From IMG/VR virus record IMGVR_UViG_3300042195_000142, positions 1 through 30,293 of that record: a DNA stretch of 30,293 nt; one strand, given 5' to 3'. The translations under genes were made by a program, and so were the position numbers. Of the stretch, positions 1,299 through 30,293 are shown piece by piece. A model generated the notes under the pieces. That model was not told the DNA's origin and did no database searches. It worked only from the letters and a program-made list of their open reading frames with translations. Source of the stretch: a virus (taxonomy: Duplodnaviria > Caudoviricetes). The stretch's first letter is position 1; every line of letters starts with the position of its first letter.

Positions 1299-1652
1299 TC
1301 ACGGCACCCACGTGTACGCGCCGAGCAGCGCCGTCGCGCGTTCCCACGTCACCGGGATCACCTCGGGCCCGTCGTCGGTGATGACGAGCTCGTACGCCCT
1401 CCGGCCCGTCAGGTCGGCGAGCGGCAGCGACCAGATCACGGAGCCGTCATGCTCGTCGCGCAGCTCCACCATCCCGGTGGCCGTGCCGTCGATCGCCACC
1501 ACGCGCGAGTTGAACCACACGTTGCCGTCGGCTGTCGCCGCGGCGTGGAACTGGTAGCGCGCCACCGCCGCCTGAGCGGATGAGCCGACGCTACCGCAGC
1601 CTGCCGTCACCACCGCGCTGGCCAGCAGCGCGAGCATCATCACGTATCGCAT
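1299..1652 (-). CDS. Predicted lipoprotein
   Basis: Start MRYVMMLALLASAVVTAG|C (lipobox TAGC) lies 6 nt after GAGGAG. The mature part is beta-rich. Confidence 0.65.
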   Translation of the reverse strand: MRYVMMLALLASAVVTAGCGSVGSSAQAAVARYQFHAAATADGNVWFNSRVVAIDGTATGMVELRDEHDGSVIWSLPLADLTGRRAYELVITDDGPEVIPVTWERATALLGAYTWVP

Positions 1653-1662
1653 CGTCATCTCC

Positions 1663-1923
1663 TCAGCAGTCGTCGTCATCGTCGTCATCGTCGTCCTGAT
1701 TCGACTCCATCGCCACTAGTAACCTGGACCGAGCCCACGTCGCCAACCCGACGCACGCTATGACAGCACCACTGTACTTCAGCAACGTGTCAGTCTGTGT
1801 CTCGTCGCCATTCAAGTCCTTAGTGGTCAGGAGCACGCTAGCGGTGAACCGAGTCTTGACCTCGTCGAACAGCTCGTCCAGCGTGTACTCGGACAGGAGC
1901 GACAGGCGCGCGTCGAAGCTCAT
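1663..1923 (-). CDS. Hypothetical protein with poly-Asp tail
   Basis: MSFDARLSLLSEYTLDELFDEVKTRF...NQDDDDDDDDDC. ATGA overlap with the upstream ORF. Confidence 0.65.
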   Translation of the reverse strand: MSFDARLSLLSEYTLDELFDEVKTRFTASVLLTTKDLNGDETQTDTLLKYSGAVIACVGLATWARSRLLVAMESNQDDDDDDDDDC

Positions 1924-2033
1924 CGTCTCGTCACCCATCGCCACAGCCGGCGCCACCACGACAGGCGCGGGCGCTCGCCGCTCTCCCATCCGTAGATGCG
2001 CAGGTCACGGTCGATCCGGACACGGCGGCTCAT
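1920..2033 (-). CDS. Small basic Trp/Arg-rich peptide (37 aa)
   Basis: MSRRVRIDRDLRIYGWESGERPRLSWWRRLWRWVTRR fills the gap exactly, with 4-nt overlaps at both ends. Confidence 0.45.
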   Translation of the reverse strand: MSRRVRIDRDLRIYGWESGERPRLSWWRRLWRWVTRR

Positions 2034-2272
2034 GTTATCGGCCCACCCGCCACCACTTTGCTTCTCACCGTGCCCTCGGCGCCGCACCAGACGCATCGCG
2101 TAGACAATCGCCGTTCGGCAAGTTGCTCTCCTGGATACAGGAACCCGCCACCGATGTTCTCGCCGCATGCGGAGCAGTACACCGTGTACAGGGTGTCCGC
2201 CTTCGGGAACCGCACCTTGCCGATCGGCGTCTCGACCTCATCAGGCAGATCCGCTCTGGGATCGTCGCTCAT
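2030..2272 (-). CDS. Small zinc-ribbon protein
   Basis: CSAC...CVWC Cys pairs. Start ATG 2272 overlaps the upstream stop. Confidence 0.6.
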   Translation of the reverse strand: MSDDPRADLPDEVETPIGKVRFPKADTLYTVYCSACGENIGGGFLYPGEQLAERRLSTRCVWCGAEGTVRSKVVAGGPIT

Positions 2273-2514
2273 TTCGGCCACTCTGCCATGGCCGCGTTCA
2301 CCCGCGCTTTGTGCAGCGCGATGAACGCGTCCTCCGACGCCGCTTCCGACCGCGACGTCGTCACCGTCACCGTCATCCCACCGCTCTGCCATGTGTGTGT
2401 CAGCATCCGTGTCCTCATCTCGATCCGGCCCAACACCGCCCCGTGATACCACCACGTTGCGGCGGTCGATGACAGAACCAACACCGTAAGTCCGATCGCG
2501 AGTCTGCGGCCCAT
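2269..2514 (-). CDS. Small protein with N-terminal membrane anchor or signal
   Basis: MGRRLAIGLTVLVLSSTAATWWY hydrophobic N-terminus. Confidence 0.55.
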   Translation of the reverse strand: MGRRLAIGLTVLVLSSTAATWWYHGAVLGRIEMRTRMLTHTWQSGGMTVTVTTSRSEAASEDAFIALHKARVNAAMAEWPK

Positions 2515-2558
2515 ACCACCTTGGATCCAGACCGCGCCACGATCCTACACCCCTTTCC

Positions 2559-2795
2559 TCACTTTTTCGCCTCCAGCGCGGACAACCGCTCGCGGATGCC
2601 CGCCATCTGCTCCCGCATCCCGGACAGTTCGCGCTTCATCTCTCGTACGTCCGAGCCGATGACGCTGACGCTGGCGTCCGTGCGCGTCCACATCACGACG
2701 TTGCTCACGATCGCGCCGACGAACACGACCACGAGCCCGAGGCTCATGCGGCTCTGTGGCGTCAGCGTGTGCGTCTTCGTCGTGTCCACCATCAT
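2559..2795 (-). CDS. Single-TM plus coiled-coil small membrane protein (holin/spanin-type candidate)
   Basis: TM LGLVVVFVGAIVSNVVMW, then heptads VREMKRELSGMREQMAGIRERLSALE. Coupled to the stop of the giant virion protein gene. Confidence 0.6.
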   Translation of the reverse strand: MMVDTTKTHTLTPQSRMSLGLVVVFVGAIVSNVVMWTRTDASVSVIGSDVREMKRELSGMREQMAGIRERLSALEAKK

Positions 2796-5700
2796 CGCCT
2801 CGTGATTCCAAACCGTGACTCCAACCCAACCCTGGTGCGTTGCTGCGCCTCGACGTCAGCGATCAGGGCCTGGATGGATTCGATGTCATCCACCTGCGTC
2901 GGCGTCTCCTTGTCCAGCAGCCGCTTCTTCAGGAGTCCGCGCAAGCGGCTCCGCTGGCTCTCCTGTCGCGCCCGCTTAAACGCCAGCCGTTGATCGACGT
3001 CCGCTTCCGCTTCCCTCGCCGGCACCACACTGAACGGCGACGCGAGCAGTTGACCTAACTGGAGATCCCCGTCCGGGCCCACTGTCGGAAGCAACGGGCC
3101 CCGGTCGATCAGACGATCAGCGCCCACCACGTTGAGCTTGTCGAGAGAGGACAGCACCCGGACGTTGTCGATCAGGTCAGCCCAGAAGGCCGGCATCGAC
3201 ACCCCGAAGCGCTCCTTGCGCTCGCCCTTAAACCGCGTCTTCTCGCGGCCGGAGTAGAAGTCCCAGCCGGCCATGCTCTCCAGTGGGATCTTGAACACCG
3301 GGGAAAGCTGCGACCCCAGCGCTTCGCCGACGTCGCCGACGCCCTCTCCGGAGAACGCCTTCAGAACGGCGTCCGTCAGCGGCGCGATCGCACCGATGGG
3401 CAGTGACGACCCGAGCAGCATGAACGACGGGTTGCCTTCGGCGTCCTTACCGGTCGCCACGCCGAAGTTCTCGCGGATGAACTCGGGAACCGCCTGCTGG
3501 TACTCTGACTCGGTCTTGAGCCCGGTCATGCCGCGAGCTGAACGGATGATCTTGTCCCAGACCGTGACCGTCCCCGGTTTGGACAGGAACGCTTGGGCCT
3601 CAGTCTTGAACGCCCACTTCGTGAACGTGTAGAAGGGGATGAATCGGCGCAGCCGGTAGCGCTCGAAGCTGGTGAGGTTGCGACCGGCTCGAGAGTCATA
3701 CGTCCACTTCCTGACGTGGTCGATGGCGTCGTCGATCGACGCCCCGGCCTTCATGTCGCCAAGCACGCCAAGGATCTTCGTGTGGTTGTCCAGGAACTCC
3801 GAGACCTTGAACGCCGGGCTGATGATCGCGTCATGGGCCGTCGCCAAGGGGCCGAGCAGCCGCCCAGAGACCGGGCCAAGCGCCGCCGGGTTGTCCTTCA
3901 GCACGTCCATGGCGCCAAGCGTGATCTCGTCGCGGAAGAAGCCGCTGTTCAGCACACCCTTCTCGTGCAAGATGCTGAACAACTCACGCCCGGTGATGGT
4001 CGATCCATCCCCCGCCTTGATCGTCATGGCCGTGAGCTTGGCAAGTGCGTTATCGTCGCCTGCCAGGGCGGCGCCCACGTGCCTCGTGAGCCGCCCTGCC
4101 TCGCCCATTGACGCGAACATGCCGCGCATGCTCACGCCGCCCTGCTGGAGCAGTAGCACGTTCGACACCCAGTCACGCGCGCGAGACTGCGGGAACGGCA
4201 ACGCCGTCCACACCTTCCAGGAGTTGGTGAAGGAGTCCAGAAGCTTGATGGCTTGCGAGCCGCCCCAGGAGTCGGCTGTGTGGAGCCGCTCGAGGACCCC
4301 ATGTTTGCCGAACAGGTTCTTCGCGACGTCCGCGTCGAGAAACTTGACCGTCTTGTCGGGGAACCGGGCAGCTAGCGTGGCGAAGCGCTCCGGGTCCGCC
4401 CCGGCAAGCTCGGTCAGGGCGGTGTGGCCTTGGCGCTTCTGCTGCAAGGCGATTGCGAACTCGTCGGCGAACTCCCCGGCGTCCATCCGCCGGTTGACGA
4501 TCTCGGTCAGCCGCTGTTTGCCTTCCTTGGTGCCGGCACGAATGGCGGATATGAACTCCTCGCGTGCCGTTCGCAGTTCGCTCATTTCCTGGCGGATCGC
4601 GTCGGACTCGGCCTTGATCTTCAAGTTGAGCTGGCCGAACAGGGTGTCTCCGGATGCGTCGTCCACGAACCCCACGTCCTTGAGCCGGCGTAGGTCGCCT
4701 GCTGTCCGCAACTGCTGCGCCTCGTCAGACAGCCGGCCGTGCTCCTCCTTCAGCGCCTTCAGCTTCTGCCCGGCCGGCGTGGCCGGCACCGTGTCCGCGA
4801 GCTTCCTTGGGCTCATCGAGGTCAGCGACAAGTCGCCACGCAAGCCGTCGATCACGTCATTCACCGCCCGGCGCTGGCTGATGATCTGCTCGCTCGTGTG
4901 CCGGCTGAGCGCAGCCTTGGCGATCACACCGCGCGCCTGGTTCTCGTTGCTCATAGCGACCGACGTCGCCCGCCCCGGCGTAAGCTCCTGAAAGCGAGCT
5001 CCACCGAGGTCCAAGAACCCGACCAAGTTGTCCTCGCTCAACATCTTGCCGAGCCCGGCCGGATCCAGCTCGCCGAGCCGCTTGCTTGCCATGACCATCA
5101 GGGAGTCATCGCCGAACACGCTCTGGTAGAACCCGAGCTTGCCACGCAGGTTGGCGTCCGCCTCCAAGCGCCGGTACCAGCGGTGCAGCGGGTTGGTCGA
5201 GAAGAAGGAGGCGGCATCGTAGTCGCCAAGCTCTTGCAACTGGCGGACGAACTTCAGGTCGAACACCTTGGCGATCGTGTCCTGCGCCTTGTCGATACCC
5301 GACAGCTTGGCGAATCCCGTCTTGCGCGTTCCCAGCTCGCGCATCATGGCGTTGACCTCGAAACTCGTCAGCGACGTGAACTTGCGGCCCCTCATGAACC
5401 CCGCCACGAAGCCCGAGGCGTTGCCCTTCAAGCTGTTCGAGAACTTGCCGAACTTGCTGTCGATCAGCTCGCGGCCTGCGGCGCTCAGGTCGCGCGGGAC
5501 GTAGAGCTCCGAGATCATGCCGAGGAAGCCGTCGGCCACGTCCTTCTGACCGACGTGCTCCATCAGGGTGCGACCCTGAGAGATGAAGTCGTCGATGTCT
5601 CTAAGTGACACCTTCTCGCCAGCTTTCCCGGCGATCTCCCCCTTCTCGATCCTCCCCTTGATGGACCGGTACAGGTTCAATGCCGCCGTCTTGGTGGCTT

Positions 5701-7159
5701 CGACCACGCCACGGGTCGCGCCCTTCGTCTCCAGAGCGGTCGCGGCGCGCCCGAGCGTTCCGGGCGATGACGCCGGGGTGATGACGTCCGCGATCCGCTC
5801 GTCGGTGGCGTCGCCGAATAGGAAGCGGGTGTCGTCTGGCGTGTCGATGCCTGGCCGCACCTCGGACCCGACGCGCCCGTCGCGCATGAAGTCCAGCGCT
5901 TCATCCGGCAGCCGCGCGTCCGGGAACGCAACCATCCACGCCGTTGCCGCGGTGTCGAAGGCTTCGACGTCACCGGCGTCGATCGCCGTCGTCATGGCTG
6001 CGCGAAGCCTGAAAGCGTTTGCGCTCTGCGTCTCCATGATGCCGGCCGGCACCGGCGTCTTCGCGTGGACACCCTGTCCGAGCAGCCGGTCGCGCCGCCA
6101 GTTGGCCTTGGCGTAGGTAACCCCGTGCGTGACCGCGTTCTCAAAGGCCAGCGCGTCGTCGAGCTTGGTCACCCCCAGTTCGGTCGCCAGCACGACCAGG
6201 TCGGCGACCTCCTTGTCCTTAAGCGCCAGCTTTCCGACGTCGCTGTTGGCGGCCCGCCGGATCAACGGGATGAACTCCGACTGCCACTTGGCGACCGTTT
6301 CATCCCCCTTGTCCAAGGCGCCGCGCGCCAGCTCGCGCATGACCGATCCGGATACCTTCACGTTCCCGTCGGCATCAACCACCCGGGAGACCGCGCCGAC
6401 CCGCGAGAAGCGGTTAGCCAAGGCCGCCGTCGGCGCGAAGCTGTTGAAGACGTCCACCGTGCGCTCGAGCGTCTTCGCCAGCGGCACGTCGAGCGCCTTG
6501 AACGGCAGCATCAGGTAGCCGGTGTTCACGAACGGGATGCCGAACGTCAGGAAGGCCGACTGCGCACCCTTCACCGCCTGCTCGGTCAGCCCGACGCCGC
6601 TCTTGAACGCCTGCTCGAGAAGCTGCTTGCGCGCAGGAGCGGCAAGAGCCTTGCCTGCTGCGCCCACTTTCGCGAACGGGAACAGGAATGTCGACGGATC
6701 GGTGAGGATCTCGCCTGCGAGGTTGATGAGGACATTGCTCCAGCCCTCTCTGGCGTCGGCCGATCCGAACGCTTCGCGGACTTCGGCGAAGTCGGTGTCG
6801 TCCACGATGTCCACGCCGGGCAGGATGTCCAGGATCTGGAAGAGAGGGTTGTTCTGGAGGAAGCCTCCAATGGCGCCAAGAACCCCGCCCTCGCCGGCGC
6901 CCTTCAGGCCGCCCTTGATCGCCTGACCGAACAGCAGCCGATCCGGGATCTGGAGGAGCTTGAAGAAGAAGTTGGTCTCCTCGTCGTCCTGCCGCCGTTG
7001 CGCCTCCAAGACGTCCGCCTCCTGCGGCATGAGCGAGGCCAAGGGATCCCGCGTCGCCGAAAGCTGGCTGCGCAGCAGCGACCCCAGGTTGGGCAGGCGC
7101 ACCGCCGTCGGTTGCGACAGGGCGCGCTGAGCCTGGAGGATCTCTTGGAGAGTCGGCAC
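2792..7159 (-). CDS. Giant internal virion / DNA ejection protein (1455 aa) with LPD38-like C-terminal region
   Basis: Last of the podovirus-like internal-protein block; helical, Ala/Gly-rich and Cys-free. The C-terminal FIPFYTF...VPEFIRE...LSPVFKIPLESMAGWDFYSGR resembles large-polyvalent-protein domains. GTG start. Confidence 0.7.
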   Translation of the reverse strand: MPTLQEILQAQRALSQPTAVRLPNLGSLLRSQLSATRDPLASLMPQEADVLEAQRRQDDEETNFFFKLLQIPDRLLFGQAIKGGLKGAGEGGVLGAIGGFLQNNPLFQILDILPGVDIVDDTDFAEVREAFGSADAREGWSNVLINLAGEILTDPSTFLFPFAKVGAAGKALAAPARKQLLEQAFKSGVGLTEQAVKGAQSAFLTFGIPFVNTGYLMLPFKALDVPLAKTLERTVDVFNSFAPTAALANRFSRVGAVSRVVDADGNVKVSGSVMRELARGALDKGDETVAKWQSEFIPLIRRAANSDVGKLALKDKEVADLVVLATELGVTKLDDALAFENAVTHGVTYAKANWRRDRLLGQGVHAKTPVPAGIMETQSANAFRLRAAMTTAIDAGDVEAFDTAATAWMVAFPDARLPDEALDFMRDGRVGSEVRPGIDTPDDTRFLFGDATDERIADVITPASSPGTLGRAATALETKGATRGVVEATKTAALNLYRSIKGRIEKGEIAGKAGEKVSLRDIDDFISQGRTLMEHVGQKDVADGFLGMISELYVPRDLSAAGRELIDSKFGKFSNSLKGNASGFVAGFMRGRKFTSLTSFEVNAMMRELGTRKTGFAKLSGIDKAQDTIAKVFDLKFVRQLQELGDYDAASFFSTNPLHRWYRRLEADANLRGKLGFYQSVFGDDSLMVMASKRLGELDPAGLGKMLSEDNLVGFLDLGGARFQELTPGRATSVAMSNENQARGVIAKAALSRHTSEQIISQRRAVNDVIDGLRGDLSLTSMSPRKLADTVPATPAGQKLKALKEEHGRLSDEAQQLRTAGDLRRLKDVGFVDDASGDTLFGQLNLKIKAESDAIRQEMSELRTAREEFISAIRAGTKEGKQRLTEIVNRRMDAGEFADEFAIALQQKRQGHTALTELAGADPERFATLAARFPDKTVKFLDADVAKNLFGKHGVLERLHTADSWGGSQAIKLLDSFTNSWKVWTALPFPQSRARDWVSNVLLLQQGGVSMRGMFASMGEAGRLTRHVGAALAGDDNALAKLTAMTIKAGDGSTITGRELFSILHEKGVLNSGFFRDEITLGAMDVLKDNPAALGPVSGRLLGPLATAHDAIISPAFKVSEFLDNHTKILGVLGDMKAGASIDDAIDHVRKWTYDSRAGRNLTSFERYRLRRFIPFYTFTKWAFKTEAQAFLSKPGTVTVWDKIIRSARGMTGLKTESEYQQAVPEFIRENFGVATGKDAEGNPSFMLLGSSLPIGAIAPLTDAVLKAFSGEGVGDVGEALGSQLSPVFKIPLESMAGWDFYSGREKTRFKGERKERFGVSMPAFWADLIDNVRVLSSLDKLNVVGADRLIDRGPLLPTVGPDGDLQLGQLLASPFSVVPAREAEADVDQRLAFKRARQESQRSRLRGLLKKRLLDKETPTQVDDIESIQALIADVEAQQRTRVGLESRFGITRR
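4168..4217 (+). repeat. 50-bp exact direct repeat, copy 1 (inside the ejection protein gene)
   Basis: CCCAGTCACGCGCGCGAGACTGCGGGAACGGCAACGCCGTCCACACCTTC, identical to 29639-29688. Confidence 0.97.
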
Positions 7160-24787: not shown

Positions 24788-25493
24788 ACGAGACATGAAA
24801 GGCTCGATGGTCATCAACCTGCCGTGCCGCGACATGGTCTTCTACGAGTCGTGGCAGGCGATCTTGCAGGCCCTGGTGCACGGGCACACCTGGATGTCCC
24901 AGACGCACCCGGGCGCCCAGTTCGGCATCGCATCGGTGAAGCGCCCGCATGTGGCGCACGCCCGCAACAAGATGATCGACGAGGCTCTGAAGTCCGGATT
25001 CGAATGGATCCTGTGGCTCGATGACGACGCCGTGCCGCCGCCGGACCTGATCGAGCGGCTGATGAGCCACAAGAAGAAGTGGGTGGCACCTCTGTTCGTG
25101 ACTCGTGGGCCCAAGCGCGAGTCGCCGGCCGCCGTTCTGGTCAAGGACGTGCTACGCCCCATCGCCTTCCACAAGGGCGGCCTGATGCTGGCCCACACGA
25201 CGGGGCTGCACTGCATGCTGATGCACCGGGACGTGGTCTTGAGCACCAAGGAGCACCTGGACGGCAAGGCGCTGTTCGTGTTCGGTGAGAGGGCCCCGTG
25301 GTCGGGCACCATGATGACCGAGGACGTGTGGTTCTGCATGCACTCTACGGCGGCCGGCAACCGCCTGTGGATCGACTGCGACACCGAGGTCGGACACGTC
25401 ACGGCGTCGGTGCTCAAGATGAAGGACTGCAACCTGACCAAGAACGGGCCCCCGAAGACCCGCATCATCACCCCAGAGGACCTCGCATCATGA
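24780..25493 (+). CDS. GT-A fold (GT2-like) glycosyltransferase
   Basis: ATG 24780 after GGAGG. Motifs VAHARNKMIDEAL, WILWLDDD (DxD), GLHCMLMHRDV and EDVWFC...WIDCDTEVGH. Confidence 0.85.
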   Translation: MTERDMKGSMVINLPCRDMVFYESWQAILQALVHGHTWMSQTHPGAQFGIASVKRPHVAHARNKMIDEALKSGFEWILWLDDDAVPPPDLIERLMSHKKKWVAPLFVTRGPKRESPAAVLVKDVLRPIAFHKGGLMLAHTTGLHCMLMHRDVVLSTKEHLDGKALFVFGERAPWSGTMMTEDVWFCMHSTAAGNRLWIDCDTEVGHVTASVLKMKDCNLTKNGPPKTRIITPEDLAS

Positions 25494-26221
25494 TCGAGTG
25501 CCCCAAGCAAAAGGTGATCCGCTACTCGTTCATCATGGCCTACGCGCCGCGCGAGGAGCAGTTCCATCGCACGATCGAGTCCTACGAGCGACTCTACGGT
25601 GACCGCGATGACTGGGAGGTCGTGGTCGTTGGTGACACCTGCGAGGTCCCGTACATCCACTCGCGCATCGTCTCGTGCTCGGTGCCGCGACCACCCGAGC
25701 GCACCAACCCGGGTGTGCTGCTGAACCTCGCGGCGTCGATGGCGAATGGCGAGCGCCTGGTCATCACCTGCCCGGAGGTCATGCACCGTGGGGACGTTCT
25801 CGCGCACGCCGACAAGGCGATGGCGACGATGACATACATCTGCTACCCGTGCCTGACCCTGCGCAAGGACGGCCAGGTCGACAGCTCGTTCATGAACGGC
25901 TGGTACCAGCACCCCAAGCACAGCAACCGGCTTCTGCACTTCTGCTCGGTCATCACGCGCGAGCTCTTCATGTCGATGGGGGGCTTTCACCTGTCGTTCG
26001 ATCTCGGGCACGGGCACGAGGACGTCTACTTCGCGCTGATGGCCATGTACAGCAAGACGATGAAGATCATGACACCGGATGAACCGGTGGTGGCTCACCA
26101 GTGGCACCCGCGGCACGCACCATCGAAGGTGAAGGATGGCGAAGATCGCAACGCCACTCGCTTGCAACGCGCTCTCGGCCTGTGCTTTGGCCGCGAGCGC
26201 CCACGCGCCGAAGAGAAATGA
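25490..26221 (+). CDS. GT-A fold (GT2/GT7C-like) glycosyltransferase
   Basis: ATGA-coupled start. Motifs WEVVVVGD, NPGVLLNLAASMANGERLVI, FMSMGGF...GHGHEDVYF and VAHQWHP. Confidence 0.8.
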   Translation: MIECPKQKVIRYSFIMAYAPREEQFHRTIESYERLYGDRDDWEVVVVGDTCEVPYIHSRIVSCSVPRPPERTNPGVLLNLAASMANGERLVITCPEVMHRGDVLAHADKAMATMTYICYPCLTLRKDGQVDSSFMNGWYQHPKHSNRLLHFCSVITRELFMSMGGFHLSFDLGHGHEDVYFALMAMYSKTMKIMTPDEPVVAHQWHPRHAPSKVKDGEDRNATRLQRALGLCFGRERPRAEEK

Positions 26222-26224
26222 ACC

Positions 26225-27784
26225 GTGAACGAATACAGCCACTTCAAAGCCGCTCGGCACTGGCCGGTCATCGACGCCATCCGCGCCGGCAACCATCACG
26301 CCCCGGTCCACGTCCAGATCATCCTGTCAGACCTCTGTAACCAGGATTGCGTCGAGGCCGGCACCAAGGTAGACTGCCCAGGCGGCCAACGACCGATCGA
26401 AGACCTTGCCGTCGGCGACACCGTGATCGGTCCTGACGGCAACCTGGTCGAGATCACACGGTTCGGGTCACGACATGCCGACGAACTCTACGAGATCCAC
26501 GCTGGCGGTGAAGTGCTCAGATGCACGGGCGAGCACCCGATCCTCACCGCAAACGGCTGGGTGGACGCCCGACACCTGCGCGCCGGCAGGGACGCGGCCG
26601 TGGTGCGTGTGCTACACGACACGTGGATGGATGTGCCTGGTGGTCTTCTGCCACAACGACCACAGGAAGCGTCTGCCGCGCCAGCTCGTTCCAGTCCTTA
26701 TAGACTTCTGCTCGAAGGGATCGAACTGGAGCGGGATCTGGCACTCTGCCCGATTGACACGGTTCGACTGATCCGTGGCCGCGTGCTCGTATACAACTTC
26801 GCATGCCCGCCTATCGAAGCCTACCTCGCCGGCAATTTCGTGGTCCATAATTGTAGTTTCTGCTCGTACCGCGTCTCCGGCAATCCGAGCAATGCGCTCT
26901 TTAAAGAAGGCGACAACAACAACCCCGCGCGCTTCATCCGGACAGACAAGGCGCTCGAGATCCTGAACGACTGCAAGACGATGGGCGTCAAGGCGATCCA
27001 GTTTACGGGCGGGGGCGAGCCGACGGTGCACCGGGACTTCGACAAGCTGTTCAACTACGCCCTGTCTCTCGGATTGCACGTCGCTCTGGTGACCAACGGC
27101 GTGAAGATCAACCCCGATGCGATCGGTGGTGCAGCATGGGTGCGGGTGAGCTTGGACGCCGGGACGGAGGAGACCTACAGGAGCTTGCGTAGGGCGCCGC
27201 GCGGCGTCTTCGAGAAGGTGCTGCTCCACGTGCGCCAACTGGCGACTCTCAAGCGCGTGGCGCTCGGCATCGGCTTTGTCGTCACCCGTGAGAACCACCA
27301 CGAGGTCGGGCAAGCGATCGACCTTGCCGAGGACATCGGCGCCGACAACATCCGCATCTCGGCGGCGTTCCTCCCTGAAGGCGCCGCCTACCACGAGCCA
27401 CACCGTGCCGCCGTGTTAGAGAAGCTCATCGAGGCGCGCTGTAAAAGCCGCCGAGCGGACTTCCAGATCATCGACCGGTTCAGCGATCGCATCGACGACC
27501 TCGAGACCGGACACCCGACGCAGTCGTTGTGCGGATACCAGCACTTCACGACATACATCGGCGCCGACTTGAACCTCTACCGCTGCTGCAACTACGCCTA
27601 CAACCCCCACGGCCTGATCGGGTCGTTGCGCGGCACCAGGCTTCCCGACGCATGGGAGGACGCGGTGCGGTCGTTTAGACGCTTCGACGCCAAGACCTGC
27701 GGCCGTTGCCAGTTCAACGGCATCAACCGGTTCATCGACTACGCCGCTCAACCCGGCGTGCAGACCCACGAGGACTTCGTGTGA
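26225..27784 (+). CDS. Radical SAM / SPASM-twitch protein interrupted by an intein
   Basis: After removing the intein the motif reads LCNQDCSFC (CxxxCxxC). Also FTGGGEPTVH, LVTNG, WVRVSLDAG and C-terminal C...IGADLNLYRCC...IGSL...CGRC. Spliced product would be 351 aa. Confidence 0.92.
   Translation: MNEYSHFKAARHWPVIDAIRAGNHHAPVHVQIILSDLCNQDCVEAGTKVDCPGGQRPIEDLAVGDTVIGPDGNLVEITRFGSRHADELYEIHAGGEVLRCTGEHPILTANGWVDARHLRAGRDAAVVRVLHDTWMDVPGGLLPQRPQEASAAPARSSPYRLLLEGIELERDLALCPIDTVRLIRGRVLVYNFACPPIEAYLAGNFVVHNCSFCSYRVSGNPSNALFKEGDNNNPARFIRTDKALEILNDCKTMGVKAIQFTGGGEPTVHRDFDKLFNYALSLGLHVALVTNGVKINPDAIGGAAWVRVSLDAGTEETYRSLRRAPRGVFEKVLLHVRQLATLKRVALGIGFVVTRENHHEVGQAIDLAEDIGADNIRISAAFLPEGAAYHEPHRAAVLEKLIEARCKSRRADFQIIDRFSDRIDDLETGHPTQSLCGYQHFTTYIGADLNLYRCCNYAYNPHGLIGSLRGTRLPDAWEDAVRSFRRFDAKTCGRCQFNGINRFIDYAAQPGVQTHEDFV
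26348..26851 (+). mobile_element. Mini-intein, 168 aa, no in-frame homing endonuclease
   Basis: Block A CVEAGTKV...RPIEDLAVGDTV, block B LRCTGEHPILT (TxxH), block F VYNF...YLAG, block G VVHN followed by Cys+1. Confidence 0.93.
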
Positions 27785-28323
27785 TCTTGAAGAACGAGCT
27801 CACGCGCCACGTCGAGCAGCTCCCAATCAGCCGCACGCGCGACGTCATCGACATCGGGTGCGGAATCCGACCATGCCATCCGTGGCGCAATCCGGGTGAG
27901 GCTTCCAGGTACATCGGCGTCGAGCCCCACGGCGAATACGTCAACCTCATGCGAGCCCACGGCTACGAGATCGTCCACAGCGACGCCGTCCACCTGCTCG
28001 AGACACGGGCGTTCATCGCAGGCGTCACAGTCCTCGCGCTCGACGTGATCGAGCACATGACGCGACACCAAGGCCTCCGCTTCCTCGACCTCCTCGACCG
28101 CCCGCCCAACGACGTGACCCAGGTCGTCCTCTTCACGCCTAACGGGTTCCGCCAGCAGGAACAGATCGACAACGAGCCCGATCCATGGGGATTGAACGGG
28201 TGGGAGTGGCAGACGCACCGATCCGGGTGGACGGCCGACGACTTCACCAAGCGAGGATACACCGTGCGCACCCACGGGCCGGACGCCGAGTCGCTCTTCG
28301 CCTTCCGCGGCGCAACCGTATGA
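27781..28323 (+). CDS. Class I SAM-dependent methyltransferase
   Basis: GTGA-coupled start. Motif I VIDIGCG, YIGVE, LALDVIEHM, VVLFTPNGF and HRSGWT..DF. Confidence 0.85.
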   Translation: MILKNELTRHVEQLPISRTRDVIDIGCGIRPCHPWRNPGEASRYIGVEPHGEYVNLMRAHGYEIVHSDAVHLLETRAFIAGVTVLALDVIEHMTRHQGLRFLDLLDRPPNDVTQVVLFTPNGFRQQEQIDNEPDPWGLNGWEWQTHRSGWTADDFTKRGYTVRTHGPDAESLFAFRGATV

Positions 28324-28511
28324 CCACCCGGTCAATGCAGCGCGCAGCCGACGAGAGACTCTTGCGCCGCTACCGCGCCATGATCTTCAAGCGCTACGGC
28401 AAGACCGTCTTCATGCGCGACCTGCGCCGCCGACTGCGATCCTTGCACCCCAACGACCTTCCCGAGGCCAGACGCCTCATGGACCAGGAGTGTGGCGACA
28501 ACACCCCATGA
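28320..28511 (+). CDS. Small basic hypothetical protein (63 aa)
   Basis: ATGA overlaps at both ends. Confidence 0.5.
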   Translation: MTTRSMQRAADERLLRRYRAMIFKRYGKTVFMRDLRRRLRSLHPNDLPEARRLMDQECGDNTP

Positions 28512-29422
28512 ACATCCTCCACGTCGGATGGTTCGACCCCGCAGGCGCCGCCGGACACATGCGCAGCCACCTCGGACCAGATCGGTGCAAGATCGCCGTC
28601 GCATTCAACACCCACGTCGCCACAGATGCCGACCTCTTCATCAAGAACACACGCTCCCTCGACGAGGTCGCCATGTGGGCCGACCACATCGTCTGGCATG
28701 TCGCCGTCTACCACGCCACTACGGCCAAGTTCGCCAACTCCACCGAGCCCGTCACAGTCGACATCACCGACGCGTTCAAACACCTCGCCCACCCCGATCG
28801 CTCCTCCATCTTCTTCGACGGATCGACCTCGCTGCGAGCGAACTTCCCCTTCTACCTCGACAAGTACAAGGACTTCCGGCACCTCTGCTCCACTCCCGAT
28901 CTCTGTGAGCCTCTCCACGCGCTGTGGACACCGCCTCTCATCCACCCTGACGCCGATCAGGCACGCTTAACCCTCGACCCCCTACCCACCTTCTGCATCT
29001 TCCACGCCCCGACAGACCCATCCGTCAAGAACACCTCCGAACTCGTCACCGCCGCTTCCAGATCGAGCACCGCCGTCGTCTCCACATCCATGATGCACAA
29101 CCCGACACTCCTTCTCCTCATGAGCAAGTGCCACGCCGTCTTCGACCACATGCAAGGATACTTCGGACTCACCTCACAGGAAGCATCCGCCATCGGACTA
29201 CCCGTCATCGTCAACTCACAACCCACGCACCTTCACTTCTCAACACCGCCACCATGGATCCAGGCCCACGACACCGACTCCCTCACCTTGGCCTTCAGAG
29301 CGCTCCGCGACACCAAACTCCGACTCGACAACGCCCGAGCCACCCGAGCCTGGTACCGCGACCACTTCTCCAACGACAACAAGCTCGCCACCTTCCTCAA
29401 CGCCATCTCAAACAACGCATGA
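28508..29422 (+). CDS. GT-B fold (GT4-like) glycosyltransferase
   Basis: MNILHVGWFDPAG start. Motifs IFHAPTDPSVKNT and CHAVFDHMQGYFGLTSQEASAIGLPVI (GT4-like EA.A.G.PVI). Confidence 0.78.
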   Translation: MNILHVGWFDPAGAAGHMRSHLGPDRCKIAVAFNTHVATDADLFIKNTRSLDEVAMWADHIVWHVAVYHATTAKFANSTEPVTVDITDAFKHLAHPDRSSIFFDGSTSLRANFPFYLDKYKDFRHLCSTPDLCEPLHALWTPPLIHPDADQARLTLDPLPTFCIFHAPTDPSVKNTSELVTAASRSSTAVVSTSMMHNPTLLLLMSKCHAVFDHMQGYFGLTSQEASAIGLPVIVNSQPTHLHFSTPPPWIQAHDTDSLTLAFRALRDTKLRLDNARATRAWYRDHFSNDNKLATFLNAISNNA

Positions 29423-29638
29423 ACTATCGTCACTCTTGACAAGATGGGGAGGGGGGAGGTAGGAGGGGGGACGGGGGGTAGATGGAGCGGGGTAAGGCGG
29501 AGGAGCCTCAGCGCCGACAGCCCAGCGGCGCTACAAGCTGGGGGCGGTGCGGTCGGGCTGAAGTCTACACACTCTCCTCCCCCACCGTCTCCGAGATACC
29601 TTCTTCCACTCGACGCTCCGCTGACCTCCACCCACCAC

Positions 29639-29688
29639 CCCAGTCACGCGCGCGAGACTGCGGGAACGGCAACGCCGTCCACACCTTC
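29639..29688 (+). repeat. 50-bp exact direct repeat, copy 2 (intergenic)
   Basis: Identical to 4168-4217; the flanks are unrelated. Confidence 0.97.
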
Positions 29689-29925
29689 ACACCCCAGGCC
29701 CCCAAGAGCAACACACCTTGAGGGAGGGAAAGATCAACAGTCGCGAAGAGCGACACACCATGCCGGCGGGTACGATCACCAAGTACTTCATGACGAAGGG
29801 ACCCGAGGCGCTCCCCCCCCAGGCCCCCCGGCACCCCCTACCGGTTGTGGTCGCGCCGCCGAGGAGGGTGGCGGCGGCTGCGTCGGGAACGGTGCGATCG
29901 GACGCAACCTGTTGCCCCGACTTCG

Positions 29926-29955
29926 GTTACGCAGTCTGCCAGCGAGTTACGCAGT
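29926..29955 (+). repeat. GTTACGCAGT direct repeat x2, 20-bp period
   Basis: Copies at 29926-29935 and 29946-29955, abutting the dif-like site. Confidence 0.8.
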
Positions 29956-29982
29956 TTCCACATAAGGGGGGTTATCGGACGC
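29955..29982 (-). other. dif-like XerC/XerD recombination site
   Basis: Minus strand reads GCGTCCGATAA-CCCCCC-TTATGTGGAAA: 11-6-11 layout with ATAA-N6-TTATG core, as in E. coli dif GGTGCGCATAA-TGTATA-TTATGTTAAAT. Confidence 0.6.
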
Positions 29983-30250
29983 CAGGGCCGCCTGGGGGGG
30001 TGGCCGGGGTAGGAGGGGCGACGGTGGCACGGAGGGAACCTCGGCGTGGCGTGGTCACGGGTGCGGTGATGGGTGGTCGTGGCGCCATGGACGATCAGCC
30101 AGGGTCGTGGTGCTCGAGGGCATCGTGCACGCGATCGACTAGGTGCGCCTGGCTCGCTGGCTCGATCATCGACGACGCCGACCACCGGTCGGCCTGGGGT
30201 GGAGGGGTGCGTCCTTCGCGGGCCGCGCGTCCCGCCGGTTTGTGTGCGCA

Positions 30251-30288
30251 TGCGGCGTTTTGCCGCAGCGGTGCGGCGATTTGCCGCA
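30251..30288. promoter_or_regulatory. Two tandem 17-bp palindromes TGCGGCG(T/A)TTTGCCGCA, operator-like
   Basis: Copies at 30251-30267 and 30272-30288, 21-bp period, one difference. Confidence 0.6.
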
Positions 30289-30293
30289 GTGAC

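Follow-up and report, generated by a model that had tools for sequence, protein, structure and literature searches.

A 50-bp copy of a late gene in the non-coding DNA of a podovirus-like phage, best explained as a templated insertion scar

A phage from soil and sediment has, in non-coding DNA, 50 bp that exactly duplicate part of a large late gene of the same genome. On balance, we regard this copy as a recent templated insertion, that is, the scar of error-prone copying or end repair, without a dedicated function. The DNA that we analyzed (the window, 30,293 bp) is the entire virus record. Positions 4168–4217 and 29639–29688 of this window are identical over all 50 bp, in the same orientation and 25,471 bp apart. 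Base composition predicts about 2e-20 such 50-bp pairs, and the second-longest exact repeat in the window measures 17 bp (a Gly-Ser tract at the window start excluded). The repeat, its orientation and its spacing had been recorded in an initial annotation, together with the judgement that a chance match is negligible, and sequence comparison bears out both. The last of the alternatives listed there, a template-switch scar, turned out to be the best explanation in light of flanking 8-mers and microhomology.

The phage, its relatives and the repeat

Pfam and PHROG matches identify the window as part of a podovirus-like genome with minus-strand terminase, SU10-type portal and adaptor, capsid, and tail genes. 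A plus-strand glycosyltransferase/radical SAM operon ends at 29422 and is followed by non-coding DNA. Window proteins are also recorded on contigs of 40,775 bp, so about 10.5 kb of the genome lies outside the window. IMG/VR contains no match to the stretch beyond the window end or to the repeat motif adjoining the copy, no relative of the last plus-strand gene and no exact match to the 50-mer. GenBank phages gave one weak capsid match and none to the non-coding region. A capsid profile searched against 185,579 species genomes for a prophage or host returned 26 pattern-matching stretches, none of which was confirmed. The operon includes a radical SAM gene (26225–27784) with Hint/intein matches at residues 42–209, and is absent from the related phage G003 at the corresponding position. 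At the opposite end of the window, positions 1–155 contain a Gly-Ser/Asp/Tyr hexamer repeat that forms the end of a plus-strand gene and probably caused the break in the assembly.

The genic half of the repeat (4168–4217) lies in a minus-strand ORF of 1455 residues (2792–7159) at the distal end of the morphogenesis operon. Its minus strand encodes KVWTALPFPQSRARDW, residues 982–997, as first described. The 1455-aa protein matches no Pfam or PHROG family, but its last 526 residues score 0.96–0.98 against viral clusters in the ESM Atlas, and 15 of 30 matches fall in clusters that include LPD38. According to the cited account, this domain is exclusive to phage polyvalent proteins, for which packaging and injection have been proposed (PMC5512222). 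Judged from these matches, the product is likely an internal or ejected virion protein, and ejection protein is a fair lead. In comparison with the relatives G004, G006 and G007, the repeated motif is among the three most conserved of the protein (a score reached by 8 of 1,440 windows, under a criterion that, like those of the junction and palindrome tests below, was set post hoc with the features already seen). At the DNA level, the same stretch ranks only within the top 14% against G007. The earlier assignment of the gene as the donor agrees with this conservation of the encoded motif in three relatives.

The non-coding copy does not stem from a chimeric assembly. Contig L012 matches window positions 25307–30293 with 100% identity, copy included. 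Four runs were compared over 28600–30293: a single contig of X1 spans the copy, X2 and X7 contain both junctions, and X14 covers other parts of this region. The window itself may come from any of X1, X2 and X7, and no variant bases are listed for the region in any of the four runs. An ORF that crosses both junctions is unchanged on eight JGI contigs, the longest of 28,682 bp, and protein records hold no shorter variant of it. Both junctions recur in other assemblies, and the copy is unchanged wherever it is covered. An insertion-free allele appears in neither the runs nor the protein records, so the empty site is a reconstruction. A 173-aa ORF across the copy (29444–29965) has no homologue and was taken as spurious.

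Capsid searches returned the relatives G003–G006 with 42–60% identity (60% for the G003 pair). A motif scan added G007, the end of which overlaps the start of G003 by 11 bases, and a scan with an 18-base motif gave four loci, of which only G003 is related. A 37-bp non-coding motif at 29524–29560, 89% shared with G003 (L010 13874–13908), marks the homologous control region. The copy is restricted to the lineage of the window, as it is absent from G004, G005/G006 and the G003 and G007 sequence examined. Distant self-repeats of 18 bp or longer are absent from G005, G006 and the complete G004 genome. For the homologous tail of G003, which ends 129 bp beyond the 37-bp motif, no match to G007 and G003 exceeds 13 bp. 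The weak alignment of the window to the G003 tail improves when the copy is removed (shuffle p of 0.033 versus 0.115 with the copy), in favor of an insertion. Three relatives are thus free of a self-copy, and the co-variation of copy and ejection gene that the initial annotation had proposed as a check fails in its simple form, since the gene varies and the copy is constant. The search for further gene fragments in the non-coding region likewise returned none above 16 bp. In G007 (L035 1–4300), we noted a cluster of short Ala/Ser-rich ORFs, on both strands, that consist of degenerate repeats of 9–18 bases.

Junctions of the copy and a proposed templated insertion

The flanks of the copy had been called unrelated, which the junctions contradict in part. 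The 8-mer CACCCCAG forms a plus-strand direct repeat at 29636–29643 and 29690–29697, with the right unit 54 bp after the left one and one base beyond the copy. The left unit ends in CCCAG, the five bases with which the copy begins, and the gene has ACACCCAG at the corresponding place, which constitutes a microhomology with the donor. Among 200,000 random insertions of 50-mers from the window, an 8-bp flanking repeat occurred by chance in 0.55% for any site in the region and in 0.34% for this site. A third CACCCCAG at 30194, on the opposite strand, indicates that the motif is locally common. Of the 14 occurrences of CCCCAG in the window, 6 fall in the non-coding region.

The donor stretch starts two bases ahead of a 20-bp near-palindrome (4170–4189, duplicated in the copy at 29641–29660) with 9 of 10 pairs and no loop. 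Its duplicate aside, no other zero-loop palindrome of this length and grade occurs in the window, and the location of the left end at the only such site in 29.4 kb, recognized post hoc, supports the scar. Shuffled sequences contain a mean of 1.7 palindromes of that grade, and looser thresholds give 5–24 sites in the window. As a DNA hairpin, the near-palindrome is weak (−3.7 kcal/mol), and its homologue in G007 is less symmetric. The initial annotation had described the 50 bp as a structured unit. This description holds for the near-palindrome but not for an RNA fold: the 50-mer folds no better than shuffles (z −0.22 and −0.28), and a 311-base region gives z −0.64.

From these junctions and from the clonality described below, we infer the following course of events. 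A nascent strand or DNA end that terminates in CACCCCAG would pair with ACACCCAG in the late gene, be extended by about 45 bases along the gene and then rejoin its own site, thereby duplicating the 8-mer CACCCCAG and leaving one extra base. The clone carrying the copy would then have spread, and a second allele of the late gene (allele B) would have been acquired afterwards from a related phage through recombination. Since a perfect 50-bp direct repeat would let a phage recombinase delete the 25.5-kb morphogenesis module, allele B may be mildly favored at the target, where it would remove a mild cost of the repeat; assemblers would exaggerate the apparent preference. A recombinase of the phage itself is a candidate only, suggested by relatives: among 75 ORFs of G004 and G007, PHROG matches include Erf-like (G007) and RecE/RecT-like (G004) proteins and also endonucleases, and the 10.5 kb of the present genome beyond the window may encode a recombinase or even an effector.

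In the cited studies, templated insertions or filler DNA have the same components, namely a short exact copy of distant DNA with microhomology at the entry junction, and a short duplicated target motif plus one extra base (PMC8421209, PMC1976456). The cited cases are eukaryotic, whereas here the host of the insertion is a phage genome and the empty site is reconstructed. One argument against a scar, besides the missing insertion-free allele, is that a random accident need not hit one of the three most conserved motifs of a protein. This objection is weakened because the palindrome arises from the same conserved codons.

Depth also changes at the copy. Taken as one value per contig, with 84–90% of each run covered among the contigs listed, depth right of 29639 is 73 versus 47 in X2 (to 30138, then 36) and 21 versus 12 in X7, and the contig depth over 29639–30293 is 1.5–1.7 times that of the backbone in these two runs. 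At 30293, the contigs of X2, X7 and X14 all stop and two continuations appear to start, and the G003 contig ends at about the homologous place. The rise could reflect either a second molecule with the same segment or a terminal repeat of some 500 bp. A genome end near 29639, if present, would be a natural site for end repair.

Two alleles of the late gene and a possible guide

The late gene contains a polymorphic block at 2861–4586 (minus strand). The version of the window (allele A) and that of G001 and L011 (allele B) differ in this block by 176 bases and 41 residues (89% DNA identity), and mosaics occur. Outside the block, we counted 3 differences in 20.7 kb of G001 and 2 in 21.1 kb of G002. 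The population is clonal except for this 1.7-kb block, which is a recombination or diversification hot spot. Given this clonality, the invariance of the copy needs no selection. Protein records include both alleles, although such records cannot reveal the state of the target, and codon usage does not polarize A versus B (54 of 113 synonymous codons favor A). A third variant affects the C-terminal part of the protein, with changes at residues 1188 and 1194. A block of 89% identity with mosaic tracts in a clonal backbone resembles homeologous recombination by Red/RecET/Erf-type systems; according to the cited work, Red-type phage systems recombine DNA that is 22% diverged (PMC2327257). Such recombination accounts for the two alleles but not for the origin of the copy, and the recombinases are seen only in relatives.

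The copy equals allele A exactly. Allele B differs from it at 4184 and 4201, both synonymous, and these mismatches leave three runs of 16. This difference permits another reading, which we consider unlikely: an allele-A phage supplied the copy, which serves, as RNA or DNA, as a repeat-less guide or spacer against allele-A siblings. A phage or host factor would attack or silence A genes, and carriers would be selected for the mismatched B at the target. Allele B is present at the target in all three fetched contigs (G001, G002 and L011, with G002 covering only 4196 onward), and a B-type contig occurs in five of the five runs compared. Short B patches lie over the target on an A background: G002 has B at 4201–4253 and A from 4277, and X7 has A at 1500–3916 and from 4238, with seven differences in between that fit the seven B positions at 4109–4201 (a patch within 4100–4237). 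In X3, B accounts for a depth of 19.4 of about 21.7 at the target, compared with 14 of 24.8 in one flank and 14.4 of 22.3 in the other. The patches and this enrichment in X3 count against the scar, and the position of the target within a top-conserved motif is also in line with a guide, as is the splitting of the match. More specifically, a single repeat-less spacer from a sibling's most conserved ejected-protein motif might drive gene conversion of the carrier to a synonymous escape allele. We rate this version slightly lower still; if true, it would produce short B patches centered on the target.

Several observations argue against a guide. The window itself holds an exact A target, so genomes that match themselves exactly appear to exist. 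X2 contains a 311-bp A arm that is identical to the window through 4197 and runs into the target; depth at the target is 11.2 for this arm and 27.3 for B, which is no B enrichment over the right flank (26.2 for B versus 16 for A), and X2 contains no alternative arm of the non-coding region. X1 has no A arm, and its B depth is flat at the target (6.95 versus 6.7 and 5.7 in the flanks). The two mismatches are part of a 176-SNP block in which 21% of the 50-bp windows have two or fewer. We found no CRISPR-length repeats, leader, CRISPR repeat family or effector in the window, and no analogue in relatives. A 25-base core of the copy, searched as a host spacer, matched none of 185,579 species genomes. 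Across 29626–29682 in X1, X2 and X7, known contigs explain the depth (84–90% of the runs), and no extra contig such as a host spacer was found. In a 31-mer graph, the copy and the A path become entangled, which would bias contigs to B; together with the depth limits given above, this makes the allele pattern suggestive only. The preference for B is also explained by assembler bias or by selection against a deletion-prone repeat.

The pattern expected of a guide is that of the SPV1/SPV2 mini-CRISPR arrays, where, as the cited report describes it, spacer-carrying viruses are mutated at the orthologous site (PMC6858448). As in those arrays, an intergenic stretch matches the gene of a co-occurring relative, and most carriers have point differences there. 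The present copy is instead 50 bp long, its flanking repeat has only 8 bp, it has no host-like CRISPR repeats and no recognizable leader, and some genomes appear to match themselves exactly (PMC6858448). Mismatch of the carrier at the orthologous site is true for B genomes, false for the window and apparently false for the X2 A arm. Since host-like CRISPR repeats are absent, a guide of this kind would fall outside the mini-array class. Among openly accessible papers, our searches brought up neither a repeat-less phage guide nor a phage antisense RNA from a duplicated gene fragment.

Diversity-generating retroelements comprise a template/variable repeat pair and a reverse transcriptase, and place changes at template adenines on the sense strand. 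The present system resembles them in that part of a virion gene has a non-coding copy from which alleles of the gene differ. However, the changes here are synonymous, at coding-strand T, and embedded in a 176-SNP block of all substitution types. Furthermore, the target is a conserved internal motif, and no reverse transcriptase is present among the 25 window proteins or the 75 ORFs of G004 and G007; no Cas protein was found in those 75 ORFs either.

The control region and the remaining alternatives

The headline of the initial annotation was a self-targeting antisense RNA, and this idea fared poorly. We consider it very unlikely that read-through from the plus-strand operon generates a trans-acting antisense RNA that damps the phage's own late mRNA. 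The copy is oriented such that plus-strand RNA would be antisense. Terminator-like sites were found at 30218 (plus strand) and at 29740–29754 (minus strand, about 50 bp ahead of the copy on that strand), and none on the plus strand between 29422 and the copy, so a read-through RNA would indeed include the antisense stretch. RNA pairing would tolerate two mismatches in 50. The TTGACA hexamer lies where it had been reported (29436–29441, plus strand) and, as in G003, upstream of the 37-bp motif, but its use as a promoter is not borne out, as no −10 box follows. A consensus search of the control region returned no promoter-like site, although the host's promoter type may differ. Moreover, no significant fold was detected, Rfam gave no family (a single chance match, E 0.91), and no tRNA was found. 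The 24 runs listed include no RNA run, which is neutral as to expression. The target is deep within the coding sequence, the copy does not follow the common allele, most assemblies are mismatched, and the relatives contain no self-copy.

Excision is marginally less probable again. Here, the repeats would be maintained as a pair whose recombination removes the 25.5-kb morphogenesis module, with a defective replicon left behind; the initial annotation had likewise proposed a circle of about 25.5 kb. The X2 A arm enters the repeat and its sole retained exit is the right flank of the non-coding copy, and the raised depth right of 29639 in X2 and X7 would also fit. A common deletion product requires raised depth left of the gene copy as well, and this excess is not seen in X2 (38.6 versus 47.1) or X7 (10.2 versus 12.3; the values for X1 are 12.8 and 11), which counts against excision. 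Graph cleaning could have removed the missing exit, a link of 14 words, and the commonest allele, B, breaks the perfect repeat.

Slightly more remote still, and on a par with each other, are two last explanations. That the copy is retained as a putative protein-binding site, an operator or decoy in the control region, is suggested by its strict 20-bp near-palindrome, the only one in the window, and by its position among other repeated motifs, but chance alone would give about one palindrome of this kind per genome, conserved codons account for its arms, its G007 homologue has lower symmetry, and 28 further bases were copied with it. That an assembler created the non-coding copy or the exact gene match is suggested by the co-occurrence of both alleles in samples and by the Logan contigs listed, none of which runs through the whole A-type target, but is contradicted by the intact copy in L012, X1 and eight JGI contigs and by the agreement of the X2 A arm with the window.

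The control region has further features. AAGAGC(A/G)ACACACC direct repeats 42 bp apart and GTTACGCAGT repeats 21 bp apart (29705–29760 and 29926–29956) are possible protein-binding sites. The sole ATAA-N6-TTAT of the window lies on the minus strand at 29955–29982, with the core CCGATAA-N6-TTATGT, and is absent from G003–G007. The arms of this dif-like site match E. coli dif at 14 of 22 positions (the best in the window) and Frankia dif at 14 of 22 (two coding sites score higher), and the site may serve XerCD dimer resolution or integration. The plus strand is C-rich before 29430 (28500–29430, GC skew to −0.44) and G-rich after 29880 (29880–30293), and G003 is likewise pyrimidine-rich at the corresponding region. 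By its composition, this strand skew suggests an origin or terminus.

As a scar, the copy would represent a small and clean templated insertion in a clonal phage population, with an effect on allele frequencies that is measurable from existing reads. If, on the other hand, the guide reading were true, the copy would be a sequence-specific phage-versus-phage weapon without a CRISPR repeat, for which the A and B alleles provide a natural test.
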